Positions 28,464 to 33,010 of a stretch of 64,000 nucleotides of DNA are shown here, piece by piece. The notes beneath the pieces are model-generated. The model saw only the letters and a program-made list of their open reading frames with translations. It did no database searches and was not told the DNA's origin. Position 1 is the first letter of the stretch; each line of letters begins with the position of its first letter. Position numbers and translations under genes: made by a program. This DNA is from an uncultured Nitrososphaeraceae archaeon. GTDB taxonomy: Archaea > Thermoproteota > Nitrososphaeria > Nitrososphaerales > Nitrososphaeraceae. Location: assembly GCA_963729045.1 (NCBI GenBank), contig CAVSMN010000009.1, forward strand, positions 160,001-224,000, given 5' to 3'.

Positions 28464-28718
28464 TTATTTTATTGTGCTTGGGATTAATTCTTCTATCTGA
28501 TTATATATCTTTAATAGTCGTAAGCCTTTTTCTGTTGTTCTATACTTTTGAGTTCCATCTTCATATTCTAACAAAGCATTCTCAATTAGCATTGTAAAGT
28601 ATTCTTTTAACTGTGCGTATGAAAGGAATGATTTGTACATGATTTTTGTCTTTGTAGCCCCACCATTTGCTGCTTCTAGTATTAAGACAGTTATTTCTGT
28701 TCTACTTCTATATTTCAT
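28464..28718 (-). CDS. winged-helix transcriptional regulator (MKYRSR family), copy 3
   Basis: Identical to copy 2 except the extreme C-terminus; immediately downstream of cdc6; alternative start at 28736. Confidence 0.9.
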   Translation of the reverse strand: MKYRSRTEITVLILEAANGGATKTKIMYKSFLSYAQLKEYFTMLIENALLEYEDGTQKYRTTEKGLRLLKIYNQIEELIPSTIK

Positions 28719-28767
28719 TATTATCAAATAGAACATTGTTGATCAAGTATTTATTAAAAGCTGTCCA

Positions 28768-28801
28768 TTCGATCATGTCTTTCGATCAGAACATTCGATC
28801 A
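28768..28801 (-). promoter_or_regulatory. three TGATCGAA direct repeats, 13-bp period, upstream of a TATA-like box
   Basis: TTCGATCA at 28768, 28781 and 28794 on the + strand; same array at about 26471-26503 and 27770-27803. Confidence 0.6.
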
Positions 28802-30016
28802 CAACAACATAGATAAGAAATTATCATCCTTTAGTGCTTTGGATACAGTATCAGAAGAAACAGCCATTTTTATTATTTGAGAACGGCCATACCTACCATG
28901 GCTAACGACGTTTGAAGTAATTAATCCAAGTTGATCCAATTCACTAATTATTTGAGTGACTCTTCTTTGGGTCAAAGAATCATGTTCAATCTGTTTACAT
29001 AATGAAGTATAGATATCATAAACATCTCCAGTCATACCAGTTTGAGATTTCATGATAGATAGAACAATCAATTTTGTATGTGTAGTGGAATTTTTAATGA
29101 CCTCATAATTAGTGTCTTTTTCAATCTTTTCTTGTGCTTCTCGAATATGATTTTCAGTAACCATATCAGCCCTTTCTCTTTCCGCTATTTCAGCCGCTAC
29201 TCTTAATAGATCAATTGCCTTTCTAGCGTCCCCATTTTCCTTCCCGGCCACTGCTGCACATAAATTAATCGCTGCCTGACCAATAGATCCCTCATTAAAT
29301 GCAAGTTTTGATCGATCATTTAGGATTTCTTTTAATTGAATTATTGTATATGGATTGAATATTATTTCCTCCTCACTTAGACTGCTTCTAACTCTTGGGT
29401 CTAGTTTGTCTTTAAATGTAAGACTATTAGATATTCCTATCAAAGATACAAACCCGTCTCCCAACATACGTTCATTTGCTCTAGTAAAGTTATATAAAAC
29501 ATCATCTCCATTCCTATCAACCAAGGAATCAATCTCATCTATAATTAAAACTACATGAAGATTATTTTTTTTTAAATATTCAAGAATCCTATCAGTGGCT
29601 TCGCCCATAGACAAACCAGTAAAATGAACTTTTAATTTCCTGTCGAAGCGATTAATCCCTATATCCTCCGCAATATCATATAATACCTTGTATGAAGTAT
29701 TTGAAGTCTTTGCGTTAATGATAGTAACGGTAATCTCTATTCCATGTTCTATTGATTTTTTTTTTAATCTAGTAATTACATTTTTTACAACAGCAGTTTT
29801 CCCAGTTCCAGGTTTTCCAAAAACTAAGAGATTAGAAGGTCTACCATTCTTTAATACGACTGATAATACTTGCGCGATTGTTTTAGACTCTTCGTCTCTA
29901 AATGGCAATTTTTCAGGAACATAATCGATTGTTAATGTTTTTCTATTCTTAATTAAATTAGCTCCAATAACAGCCTTATCAAATATATTATCTAAATAAT
30001 CTGAATCCATCATCAT
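28799..30016 (-). CDS. cdc6: Orc1/Cdc6 replication initiator
   Basis: Walker A GKPGTGKT, Walker B IIDEID, GDARKAIDLLR, C-terminal wHTH GRYGRS. Confidence 0.97.
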   Translation of the reverse strand: MMMDSDYLDNIFDKAVIGANLIKNRKTLTIDYVPEKLPFRDEESKTIAQVLSVVLKNGRPSNLLVFGKPGTGKTAVVKNVITRLKKKSIEHGIEITVTIINAKTSNTSYKVLYDIAEDIGINRFDRKLKVHFTGLSMGEATDRILEYLKKNNLHVVLIIDEIDSLVDRNGDDVLYNFTRANERMLGDGFVSLIGISNSLTFKDKLDPRVRSSLSEEEIIFNPYTIIQLKEILNDRSKLAFNEGSIGQAAINLCAAVAGKENGDARKAIDLLRVAAEIAERERADMVTENHIREAQEKIEKDTNYEVIKNSTTHTKLIVLSIMKSQTGMTGDVYDIYTSLCKQIEHDSLTQRRVTQIISELDQLGLITSNVVSHGRYGRSQIIKMAVSSDTVSKALKDDNFLSMLL

Positions 30017-30550
30017 TTCTTTCCGTTAATAGTATTGATAAATCAACACAGACACACCCCTATTTTTCTATTCGAATGATAAAAAGATAATGTCATGTTA
30101 ATATGCTAACTGTTATTAACATTTAATTTTAAACAGGTTAATCAATTATTTTATACATAATAATTAAATAAATTAATATAATTCTACTATCAAAATCAAT
30201 ATTAATTGCATAAGAAATAGAGGGGCCTGTGGCTTTCAAACCAAATTAACATTAATCTTAACAGTTAAAAATCATTTGATAATAAACGTGAATTAACCCC
30301 TTTATTTCCACTGGAGGAATTCTAAATTCATTCACAACGATAATAAACGTGAATTAACCCCTTTATTTCCACTGGAACTAGAAAACCTTTAAGATGGATA
30401 ATCAAATTAACTTTAGAAATATAGACATCAATAATTATGTGCTTATTTTAGTTAACAAAAACTAATCTTTTAGTTATCAATTTTTATTCCATATTGTTAA
30501 GTTAACATATGTTATCAAATTCACAGAGACGATAAATTGTCCACTGGAAA
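30017..30550. other. chromosomal replication origin (oriC) with ORB elements
   Basis: ORBs CCCCTTTATTTCCACTGGA at 30297 and 30358 within a 38-bp exact repeat (30278-30315, 30339-30376); degenerate ORBs at 30057-30076 and 30206-30225; mini-ORB at 30540; AT-rich tracts; adjacent to cdc6. Confidence 0.9.
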
Positions 30551-31118
30551 AAAGAGAATAAAAATTGAATTAGAGGATGCTGAAGGTGGAAAATATAATT
30601 TATCTCTAGAAGGCAATTTATCAAAAGACAAAATTCAAAAGGTTCTTCAATTAGTGGAATCATTGAACATCTCAAAGGATGATTTAGATAATAATATCCA
30701 AATTCCTATGGAACAAAATAATAGTTTACAAAAGTATGACTTAGGACTCAATCAATCTAATAACTCGATTGGATCAAAGATATGGGCATTGATCGAAAAC
30801 AACTTTGCATTTAGTTCTTTTACATCTTCAAATGTAGCCGAATCCTATGAAGAATCATACGGTGAACAGTTACAACTTAGTCTCATATCCACTTATTTAT
30901 CAAGATATTTTGAAAAGCAAAAATTGGTAAGGAGTAAAAGAGGGAAAGAATGGATTTATAAGTTAATTAGAATTCAAAAAGATGTTATTTCGTCCGTTGG
31001 GACACCTACTACTTCTCAATCAAGTCGTTTAATGGATTCACATTACTCGGAAGATCAGGGTGAGAATGACTTTTTGAAGCAGAATGCTTTGACAACAGTT
31101 TACGACCTTCGACTGTGA
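30537..31118 (+). CDS. origin-adjacent hypothetical protein with probable winged-helix domain
   Basis: FTSSNVAESYEE...LSLISTYLSRYFEKQKLVRSKRGKEWIY helix-helix-wing pattern. Confidence 0.75.
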   Translation: MSTGKKRIKIELEDAEGGKYNLSLEGNLSKDKIQKVLQLVESLNISKDDLDNNIQIPMEQNNSLQKYDLGLNQSNNSIGSKIWALIENNFAFSSFTSSNVAESYEESYGEQLQLSLISTYLSRYFEKQKLVRSKRGKEWIYKLIRIQKDVISSVGTPTTSQSSRLMDSHYSEDQGENDFLKQNALTTVYDLRL

Positions 31119-31732
31119 TAGTATACCTGAAGGGCTTTGTGCTCATATCTCTATCAACTAATTTCTCTTCAAATAATTTTTTCATTAATCTAGAAGTGTG
31201 TTCTCTAGTCCTACCTACTACTCTTTGAACCTCCCTAGTAGTCAGAGATTTATCCTCTAATTTTTTTAGGATGTATTCTATTGTACTATTCTGACGGTCT
31301 TCTTCCTGATCCACCGACTTGATAGAGTCTTGTGATGTTATGTCGTGATTAGGTAGTGATGTTTCAATTTTTGGATTGCTTACGTAGTTTTGGAATGGTG
31401 ATATTACAGAATTCTGTGACTTGATCTTGTTGTTGAGATATTATATTTTCATCTAATAATTTTATTAAACTTTGGATATCGGTTAATTTTTCGTTGGTCT
31501 TATTAGTTCTGTCATATAAGACTCTAAATTGTTCAGAAATGAGATTAGTCTTATTAATTTGATCCTTTATTTGACTTTCAAGCTGAGAGATTTTTGTTTC
31601 AATATTGTATTTCTTAAATTTTTTGTTTTTTAACTGCTTGTAAATTTCTAAAGCTAGAATTGATAATGCTATAGCTGAAACAAATGGAATTAAGGTATAA
31701 TTTAATATTAGTGATGCAATATCTATGCTCAC
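31009..31732 (-). CDS. membrane-anchored coiled-coil plus C-terminal winged-helix protein (one gene with a frameshift near 31410-31450)
   Basis: 31364..31732 gives TM helix + coiled coil; the shifted frame NSVISPFQ...HDITSQDSIKSV runs into 31009..31314 (LTTREVQRVVGRTREHTSRLMKKL...PFRYTITVEG). Confidence 0.72.
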
Positions 31733-31812
31733 ATATAATTTAGCAATACAGTGTGATATAACTTTATTGTATGTGATAATTTGACATTTAATATTATAAA
31801 CTTAGTGATATA

Positions 31813-32178
31813 TCACATATCGATTATTCTATTAATCAAATCTTCTATTACATTTATCACATTAGTTATCTCTTTATCGTGATATTTAGCGTGATTGTCT
31901 TCAAGCATTCTAAGCTTGATTAACATGGAGTTTAAGGCGGTAATTTGATCATCTTTCATTACATTTATTAGATTTAGTAGTAGGATGGAATAGAACAATT
32001 TCCGCAGTTTTGTCTTTGATTGCTTAACTTCTCTGTAATATGCGCCTGAACTTATTTCCTTCGGCCTTTTCTCTTTTTTCTTGAAATTATAAATTATTTG
32101 TATTTGTCTGTTGGTAAATAGAGATTTTTCAATTAATTTGGAAAGAAATAAATTATTTATATCTTCTTTGTTTTCCAT
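31813..32178 (-). CDS. hypothetical protein, probable helical DNA-binding protein
   Basis: SLFTNRQIQII...ISSGAYYREVKQSKTKLRK pattern. Confidence 0.7.
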   Translation of the reverse strand: MENKEDINNLFLSKLIEKSLFTNRQIQIIYNFKKKEKRPKEISSGAYYREVKQSKTKLRKLFYSILLLNLINVMKDDQITALNSMLIKLRMLEDNHAKYHDKEITNVINVIEDLINRIIDM

Positions 32179-32272
32179 CAGCTATACAATATTGTATAGT
32201 TAATTATACTATTTTAAATAAACTTAGCACAATCATTAAATTTAATTCAATTAGTATACGTGTAGTATTAGA

Positions 32273-33010
32273 TTGAGTCGGGTAGAGAACTATATTAATG
32301 ATGAATTGAAAAAGCATAAAAAAATATGTTTTGCTTTATTAGATTCGGAGAATTTTGAAGACATTGCTGGTGTTGCGAAAAAAGTTGAATCACTTGGTGC
32401 CTCAGCTATTTTGGTGGGAGGTTCGTCTGCCATAGATCAACTGGATTTAGACAAATTAGTAATATCAATAAAGTCTATAATATCTATTCCTGTTATTTTA
32501 TTTCCAGGAAACGTTACAGGTGTATCTCCTAATGCCGACGCGATTTTATTTACCTCATTGCTAAATTCCGAGGATCCATATTTTATTTCAGGAGCTCAAG
32601 CACTAGGTGCATTGTTGGTAAAAAAGTATAATATTGAACCATTGCCAACAGGATATATAATAATTGGTGATAATACTACAGCCTGGTTTATTGGGAGAGC
32701 AAAAGGTATACCTTTTGAAAAATCTAATATCGCTGTTATGTATTCATTGGCCGCACAGTATTTGGGTATGAGGTTTGTTTACCTGGAGGCTGGATCCGGT
32801 GCAAAAAAGAATGTATCTGCGGAAATGATTTCAAATGTTAGAAAGTATTATGATGGCTTATTAATTGTTGGAGGGGGCATTAAGAATTCCTTGATAGCTA
32901 AGGAATTAGCGGAGGCAGGGGCAGATATCTTAGTTGTAGGAACATTATTAGAGCGGGATCCGGATTGGGAAAAAAAATTTAACGACATTGTTATGGCCAT
33001 TCGTTCCTGA
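32273..33010 (+). CDS. geranylgeranylglyceryl phosphate synthase (GGGPS)
   Basis: ILVGGS, PVILFPG, SLLNS, YLEAGSGA, VGGGI. Confidence 0.95.
   Translation: MSRVENYINDELKKHKKICFALLDSENFEDIAGVAKKVESLGASAILVGGSSAIDQLDLDKLVISIKSIISIPVILFPGNVTGVSPNADAILFTSLLNSEDPYFISGAQALGALLVKKYNIEPLPTGYIIIGDNTTAWFIGRAKGIPFEKSNIAVMYSLAAQYLGMRFVYLEAGSGAKKNVSAEMISNVRKYYDGLLIVGGGIKNSLIAKELAEAGADILVVGTLLERDPDWEKKFNDIVMAIRS

Follow-up and report, generated by a model that had tools for sequence, protein, structure and literature searches.

The described systems closest to the one considered here pair a DNA binder with clustered short cognate sites that lie in its gene or next to it, near a replication origin; these are ParB/Spo0J-parS, in which parS sites lie within spo0J, and the archaeal SegB and AspA. 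Such systems usually also autoregulate. The RacA-ram and Noc-NBS systems of Bacillus tether the chromosome to the pole or to the membrane, the ToxR/CadC-type proteins are membrane-bound one-component regulators, and the half-site of CRP is TGTGA. The window examined here is a stretch of 64,000 nucleotides from an uncultured Nitrososphaeraceae archaeon (G000:C9:160001-224000), belonging to a 2.85-Mb assembly (2,847,185 bases, 33% G+C, 22 contigs). Beside its replication origin it contains a cluster of the word GTGAT (complement ATCAC), which surrounds and enters a gene for a winged helix-turn-helix (wHTH) protein with a transmembrane (TM) segment, a long helix or coiled coil and a disordered linker. 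The evidence leans towards the reading that this cluster is a functional array of TGTGAT half-sites in two blocks and the self-target of the membrane-anchored protein.

The likeness to ParB/Spo0J-parS and to SegB/AspA lies in a DNA binder, here predicted, with its short-site cluster in and beside its own gene near the origin. In contrast to ParB and SegB, there is no nearby ATPase and no ParB/CTPase or ribbon-helix-helix (RHH) domain, the half-sites of 5-6 bp have no fixed spacing, and the candidate binder is an integral membrane protein. RacA and Noc are site-specific binders that attach DNA to the envelope through a coiled-coil or membrane-targeting part, tethering being putative in the present case; they are not homologous to the wHTH protein, their sites span hundreds of kb whereas here a single array of ~560 bp is found, and the predicted anchor is a true TM helix. 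The likeness to the MarR/ArsR autorepressors lies in the predicted wHTH fold and in sites overlapping the protein's own promoter, where binding is predicted; unlike in those families, its Pfam matches stay below the gathering scores, dimerisation would use the TM/coiled-coil stalk, and the ~12 sites extend into coding DNA. The likeness to CRP and Vfr consists in an R-E-x3-R triad in the recognition helix, in register in an alignment below significance, and in the word TGTGA(T), the CRP half-site. In comparison with CRP/FNR proteins no cNMP-binding domain is present (no Pfam match) and the N-terminal 106 residues are a long helix including the TM segment; in comparison with the TGTGA-N6-TCACA operators of CRP, the only palindrome has N4 between TGTGA and TCACA, and most sites are direct repeats. 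ToxR and CadC are likewise single-pass membrane proteins with a cytoplasmic wHTH, but the order of the parts is reversed here, the anchor being N-terminal, and there is no outside sensor domain, because the TM segment begins within ~8 residues of the N terminus. Among known self-targeted DNA binders with a site array, this candidate is unusual for its predicted integral membrane anchor, its sites in two coding regions and its class-wide conservation beside the origin.

That the array is real rests above all on its recurrence in other genomes of the class Nitrososphaeria. Loci of species representatives were retrieved by a pattern including the recognition helix, whose presence there is therefore by construction; of the 79 fetched, seven were dropped for insufficient flank and 72 were counted. 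Over these loci, 721 sites (mean 10.0) fall within 800 bp upstream of the recognition helix and 101 (mean 1.4) within 800 bp downstream of it, with an upstream surplus in 71 of the 72 loci and equal numbers in one. In unbiased k-mer scans, where the remainder of every locus served as reference for the 800 bp preceding the wHTH domain, ATCAC/GTGAT is the first of all 5-mers in 10 loci from other families (80 sites versus 18.4 expected, P 3e-26), where TGTGAT is also the first of all 6-mers (50 versus 7.6 expected), and it is again the first 5-mer in 12 loci from other orders (62 versus 25 expected, P 4e-10). The signal in the other orders is uneven, with 14 sites in L049 and 7 each in L053 and L055. 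Equivalent site positions recur while protein identity has dropped to 35-60%, and 258 sites yield the extended consensus T-GTGAT-[A/G/T], C being avoided at the position that follows the core.

The site profile is bimodal, as determined on 68 loci. Block 1, from -700 to -400 relative to the recognition helix, runs from the 3' end of the neighbouring gene D121 through the intergenic promoter into the first codons of the wHTH gene; it has both orientations, and the sense of its sites relative to the gene flips between families. Block 2, from -250 to +50, takes in the linker together with the beginning of the wHTH domain and has 225 ATCAC in sense against 23 GTGAT in sense. The wHTH gene is present in 17 of 18 genomes of the genus; sampling of 81 genomes across the class found it in 63, and in none of the seven genomes of one family; three origin loci of this gene-less family have no GTGAT cluster, so that the distribution of the array follows the gene, in keeping with the pairing of word and gene in the initial annotation. 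The order orc1 - A193 - wHTH gene - D121 - geranylgeranylglyceryl phosphate (GGGP) synthase is kept in the fetched loci of the genus, within contig reach, as well as in the 10 other-family loci and most of the 12 other-order loci. The closest named relatives of the wHTH gene (84-92% identity) are labelled Candidatus Nitrosocosmicus, and conservation of the module spans Nitrosocosmicus, Nitrosopumilaceae, Nitrosotalea and further lineages.

The coding sites were evaluated by resampling synonymous codons according to the codon usage of the genome with the amino-acid sequences fixed. In the linker (60 codons before the wHTH domain; 17 orthologues) 65 sites are found versus 15.9 expected, against 22 versus 15.8 in the remainder of the gene; in the last 45 codons of D121 (14 orthologues) the figures are 42 versus 9.3, and in its first 75 codons 0 versus 2.0. 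The linker sequence is otherwise unalignable, and its copies of the word nearly all have the reading xxA-TCA-Cxx, in which a Ser codon precedes one for Gln, His, Pro or Leu. These figures place the constraint on the DNA and not on the protein. The conservation of the motif at synonymous sites, which the initial annotation had proposed to look for across the lineage, is found in these orthologues.

Within the genome, an exact search agrees with the 13 copies first listed for this cluster, located at 31115, 31332, 31345, 31356, 31398, 31711, 31753, 31773, 31805, 31812(-), 31856(-), 31879 and 31891, that is over 31115-31895 with 11 sites on the + strand and two on the - strand; the one or two copies then estimated by chance also correspond to the genome-wide rate (5048 sites in 2,847,185 bases, 1.77 per kb or ~1.4 per 800 bp). 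The array is the sole one in the genome and its GTGAT-densest 800-bp window, with 13 sites, so that the presumed outlier is one for this word; the runner-up windows, with 12 sites on C21 and 9 on C3, are both tandem coding repeats. These are the only other dense GTGAT windows (G000:C21:65700-66500 and G000:C3:15400-15900) and consist of Ser/Gly/Asn/Gln-rich coding repeats, including (GGTGATAGC)n, in which several frames seem interrupted. The Poisson probability of 13 sites in 800 bp is 3.8e-8, which gives 0.11 when multiplied by 2.85e6 possible k-mer starts; a narrower window, with 12 sites within 564 bp, has a look-elsewhere expectation of 0.03. With tandem repeats masked, ~20 other loci have an equally or more extreme 5-mer cluster, being rRNA-like GC islands, A-tracts and the GTTAA cluster of oriC; unmasked, more than 45 loci have a 5-mer cluster at least as extreme, mostly tandem repeats. 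The cluster is an outlier in the single genome, with borderline significance across all 5-mers; because of the look-elsewhere effect this outlier is not overwhelming, and the decisive support is the conservation in other genomes.

Twelve of the 13 sites stand as members of the array; the site at 31115 was rejected, since an equivalent exists in 3 of 17 genus loci only, and it is probably due to chance. The palindrome GTGATATATCAC (TGTGA-N4-TCAC), described from the start as lying across a stop codon, is indeed located at 31805-31816, spans the TGA stop of D121 upstream of the TATA box and occurs once genome-wide; it is found in part of the genus and in the promoter of locus L019, which belongs to another family. 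The pair TATCACA-N13-TATCACA has also a single occurrence in the genome, and the peptides SVISP and NHDITSQ are encoded across motifs, as had been noticed. Neighbouring sites are mostly direct repeats with varied spacing. No significant helical phasing was detected (best period 11.25 bp, P = 0.33 versus jittered controls), and no longer repeat units were found beneath the sites, which are isolated short words. The pattern GTGAT-N3-30-GTGAT-N3-30-GTGAT, searched in five genomes, gave 6-12 matches each and did not exceed a reversed-pattern control in three of the five; the pattern is unspecific, yet the origin locus recurs in four of the five. The site at 31398 is variable among relatives, and among the differences of environmental relatives one falls inside a site (31399), too few for a test.

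The wHTH protein belongs to a family of ~240 residues that the source annotation calls only hypothetical or a generic ArsR/MarR/HTH regulator. In this assembly the gene is split into two open reading frames (ORFs), while orthologues have one open frame of 227-254 amino acids (aa), in agreement with the single frameshift-corrected protein of the initial annotation. The window copy is 2 nucleotides (nt) shorter than its genus relatives, which are in frame. The extra G at 31435 is missing in the contigs of all four sequencing runs considered (three DNA studies and one RNA library), which derive from environmental relatives mostly >=95% identical to the window, and its removal restores the frame; because none of these contigs has the extra G, the break is private to this assembly, and the insertion may be genuine or an error of the consensus. 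A hydrophobic stretch occupies the first ~28 residues (Kyte-Doolittle mean of 2.05 over 19 aa from residue 8), and six K/R follow in residues 29-42; in the window and in the aligned homologues the hydrophobic segment starts at most ~8 residues from the N terminus. This fits a predicted N-terminal anchor, the remainder of the chain being cytoplasmic and essentially nothing lying outside. The AlphaFold2 (AF2) model, obtained for a 93%-identical orthologue from a 24-row alignment (mean predicted local distance difference test, pLDDT, of 74), has a single helix at residues 2-106, a stretch with pLDDT <50 at 107-146 and the wHTH domain at 147-219 with pLDDT ~90. Hydropathy and model together support the TM, coiled-coil and wHTH architecture read at first from the sequence, and the predicted-disordered stretch 107-146 is the exact place of the coding sites. 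The protein scores below the cut-off of every Pfam and NCBIfam model, the sub-threshold Pfam scores being 20.3 versus 22.2 for HTH_27, 14.2 versus 24.6 for MarR and 17.3 bits versus 27 for HTH_Crp_2; a Foldseek search with the wHTH domain retrieves MepR, CzrA and ZitR at E 7e-4 to 2e-3.

The identity of the protein reading the word is suggested by the recognition helix, [ST]-R-E-H-x-x-R, which is invariant in 24 aligned homologues and present, as read by eye, in all 22 loci from other families and orders. Among PDB sequences, Vfr and CRP match the HTH segment best; the alignment has no gaps and keeps R-E-x3-R in register, at a non-significant E of 0.2-1.4. According to PMC2677863, the CRP triad Arg180/Glu181/Arg185 contacts bases and sets the specificity of the CRP/FNR family. 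By analogy, the R-E-x3-R triad is an independent pointer from the wHTH protein to the TGTGA word rather than a demonstration.

The promoter sites are the most conserved of the array. All 17 genus rows have the -25 site and 15 of the 17 have the -45 site; the former overlaps the TTATAT box (31756-61) by two shared bases. TATA-like hexamers peak genome-wide at -40 to -21 from the start codons, hence leaderless or short-leader transcripts appear usual; a contig of the RNA library (run X15) covers 31301-31726, and its end, 6 nt within the start codon, hints weakly that the wHTH gene has a leaderless transcript. ATCAC is not a general promoter feature, and it occurs at both positions in 0 of 1174 other upstream regions. 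Since the most conserved sites flank or overlap the TATA box, autoregulation is indicated first, and their position suggests autorepression in which the bound protein would compete with TBP/TFB. Of the initial interpretation, the conserved array tied to a membrane-anchored wHTH gene is supported, and the centromere-like or origin-tethering function stays putative.

In the mechanism that would follow, the N-terminal anchor, having no outside domain, would hold the protein in the membrane; the ~80-residue cytoplasmic stalk would probably pair two chains, and the disordered linker of ~40 residues would let each wHTH domain reach half-sites at any spacing or orientation, with the recognition helix reading TGTGA in the manner of the CRP triad. 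The absence of phasing and of fixed spacing, together with the flips of orientation, fit such independently tethered half-site readers. Binding at -45 and -25 would repress the gene's own, putatively leaderless promoter; the remaining ~9 sites, which occupy the 3' end of D121 and the linker codons, could constitute a patch of high avidity. With a predicted membrane anchor on the protein and no second array in the genome, occupancy would put this DNA at the membrane, and the bound protein would hold there a locus 0.8-1.9 kb from the ORB (origin recognition box) repeats.

Several observations weigh against a self-targeted array. The wHTH gene itself is frameshifted in this assembly; three of the 12 other-order loci (L046, L051 and L052) have no site excess; and a dozen sites over ~560 bp exceed the needs of simple autorepression. 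The matches to CRP and Vfr are non-significant and the argument from the triad is one of analogy, because the fold of the domain is a generic MarR/ArsR-type wHTH. Moreover, D121 co-occurs everywhere examined and could be the binder. Finally, a plain half-site reader does not require the near one-strandedness of block 2, which may reflect coding limits of the Ser/Gln/His-rich linker or a role at the RNA level.

The alternative that survives best, although it is considered rather doubtful, is a dedicated origin-membrane tether or centromere-like element, serving segregation, positioning or sequestration after initiation, in which the promoter overlap would be secondary as in ParB/parS or SopB. 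Anchoring itself looks like the function because the TM anchor has no outside domain; the long stalk and flexible linker, the presence of one array only in the genome, and a site number beyond the needs of an operator, reaching into two coding regions at synonymous positions, are in line with this, as is the adjacency to orc1 and the ORB repeats, kept class-wide. AspA, an archaeal centromere binder, is also among the fold matches of the wHTH domain (rank 21, TM-score 0.66 normalised to the target), which is a generic wHTH likeness. On the other hand, the protein has no ParB or SegB features, and no family of ParB (HTH and CTPase) or of RHH-type centromere binders is found for it in Pfam/NCBIfam. 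ParA/SegA-type ATPases are present in the genome (nine matches to PF01656 and four to PF13614), but none is on contig C9, which extends to the whole contig the lack of such an ATPase first remarked for the window. In addition, GGGP synthase and PolD are kept in the same block, so that origin adjacency may be plain conservation of gene order, and two of the 12 other-order loci (L047 and L053) have no orc1 inside the fetched stretch.

It is distinctly less probable that another factor binds the array, most likely D121, with the wHTH protein as its partner or the wHTH gene as its target. D121 stays a rival binder or partner because it is the constant neighbour of the wHTH gene, a D121-like gene lying directly upstream on the same strand in every examined locus that has the wHTH gene, and because both are missing from the gene-less locus L057; part of the array is moreover within the 3' end of D121 itself, and there is a weak lead to sigma-70 region 4, with an Atlas score of 0.81 to a cluster in which PF04545 occurs in 14% of members. 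Nevertheless, D121 gave no Pfam, NCBIfam or PDB sequence or profile match and no fold match at E up to 0.001; its AF2 model is middling, with five helices and a pLDDT of 67, so that of the small helical DNA binder proposed at the outset the helical nature stands and a recognisable DNA-binding fold does not. Nothing in D121 points to TGTGA, while the helix of the wHTH protein has the CRP-type triad. That the word is a by-product without protein binding, deriving from a conserved promoter together with the codon or dipeptide composition of a linker rich in Ser, Gln and His, or from an AUCAC signal in the mRNA, agrees with the nearly exclusive sense ATCAC of block 2, read xxA-TCA-Cxx, and with the ~2 sites per gene to which the amino-acid sequence by itself lifts the expectation, but is highly improbable given that a ~4-fold excess persists with that sequence fixed, that enrichment of this word extends to non-coding DNA and to the 3' end of the neighbouring gene, that block 1 has both orientations, flipping between families, and that no known RNA family matches positions 29900-32400 in Rfam at E up to 1.

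Beyond the self-targeted array, a broader proposal can be advanced, which is regarded as unlikely at present: the class Nitrososphaeria would fix its origin region to the membrane by a ParA-independent, anchor-only module landing on the TGTGAT array of its own gene, possibly together with D121.

Table 1. Positions in the window of the origin, the genes around it and the GTGAT sites.
Feature	Coordinates	Strand	Remarks
orc1/cdc6 replication initiator (405 aa)	28799..30016	-	NCBIfam TIGR02928, 374 bits vs cut-off 181; origin marker
oriC intergenic region, AT-rich	30017..30552	.	two perfect 38-nt ORB-like direct repeats, 30278-30315 and 30339-30376
third TCCACTGGAA core	30540-49		overlaps first codons of the 193-aa gene A193
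A193, origin-flanking gene, 193 aa	30537..31118	+	conserved N-terminal domain, wHTH-like middle part
wHTH gene (TM + long helix/coiled coil + disordered linker + wHTH)	31009..31732	-	split in this assembly: ORFs 31364-31732 (122 aa) and 31009-31314 (101 aa)
GTGAT over the A193 stop codon	31115..31119	+	equivalent in 3/17 genus loci: L001, L006, L015
intragenic block, GTGAT at 31332, 31345, 31356, 31398	31332..31402	+	ATCAC on gene strand, codons of the disordered linker
frameshift, extra G on + strand	31435	.	private to this assembly
site in wHTH-gene codons 6-8 (A-S-L)	31711..31715	+	part of the genus only
-25 (31753-57) and -45 (31773-77) sites of the promoter, counted from the GTG start	31753..31777	+	conserved block ATCACATACAATAAAGTTATATCAC
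D121, all-helical protein, 121 aa	31813..32178	-	same-strand upstream neighbour of the wHTH gene
D121 3'-end sites	31856(-), 31879, 31891

The positions of these features are listed in Table 1; the gene is within ~2 kb of the ORB-bearing origin, consistent with the proximity to oriC noted initially. The TCCACTGGAA core is one that we take to be ORB-like. Its third copy, as TCCACTGGAAAA, writes the TTG start and the first codons of A193 (M-S-T-G-K-K; 30537-30552), and therefore initiator binding would fall on the A193 start; MST[GA]KK is retained by every A193 orthologue of the genus. The oriC region also has a second, different word cluster, with 17 GTTAA/TTAAC sites per 800 bp (29713-30513) versus 2.0 expected, which is the 10th among the 5-mer clusters of the genome when repeats are masked. 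A193 and the wHTH gene are convergent and overlap by 110 nt (31009-31118), both tails being conserved in the genus; the C-terminus of A193 is ...TTVYDL[RH]L in all genus orthologues. No Pfam or PDB match was found for A193, a PDB profile search included, in which nothing was significant. A193 was considered as a binder and is unlikely, because it occurs in the family where the array is absent and is thus unlinked to it. On the other side of orc1 there is a 90-aa winged-helix gene of the HTH_45 family (28464-28736, - strand; Pfam E 1.6e-20), so that several small DNA-binding proteins flank the origin. Beyond D121, the + strand encodes GGGP synthase and the PolD large subunit; in other families (L022-L028 and L044-L055; for example L026:4267-4515) a small zinc-ribbon gene (MGRRRR...KTLPK.F.CP.CG), presumably resembling an archaeal Elf1-type protein, lies between D121 and GGGP synthase, and it is missing at that spot in the genus of the window.

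The accessible parts of the literature, including the reviews PMC4010727, PMC7617429 and PMC5120986, give no description of the protein family, the word or the module. In the accessible parts of two of them, only the timing of the cell cycle is described for Thaumarchaeota and no segregation or tethering factor is named (PMC5120986, PMC7617429). The locus bears on chromosome positioning and separation in archaea without obvious ParABS or SegAB, and offers a concrete candidate in a soluble wHTH domain of ~75 residues, a 6-bp word and an array of ~560 bp adjoining a defined origin. If membrane fixation is true, it would be a literal form of the origin-membrane attachment of the old replicon model, and its role would be to position or segregate the origin or to sequester it after firing. 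The conservative reading is also informative, as it describes an autoregulated membrane-bound regulator whose cis-elements would be kept class-wide at synonymous positions of two coding regions, with an archaeal wHTH that appears, by analogy, to reuse the CRP recognition code.

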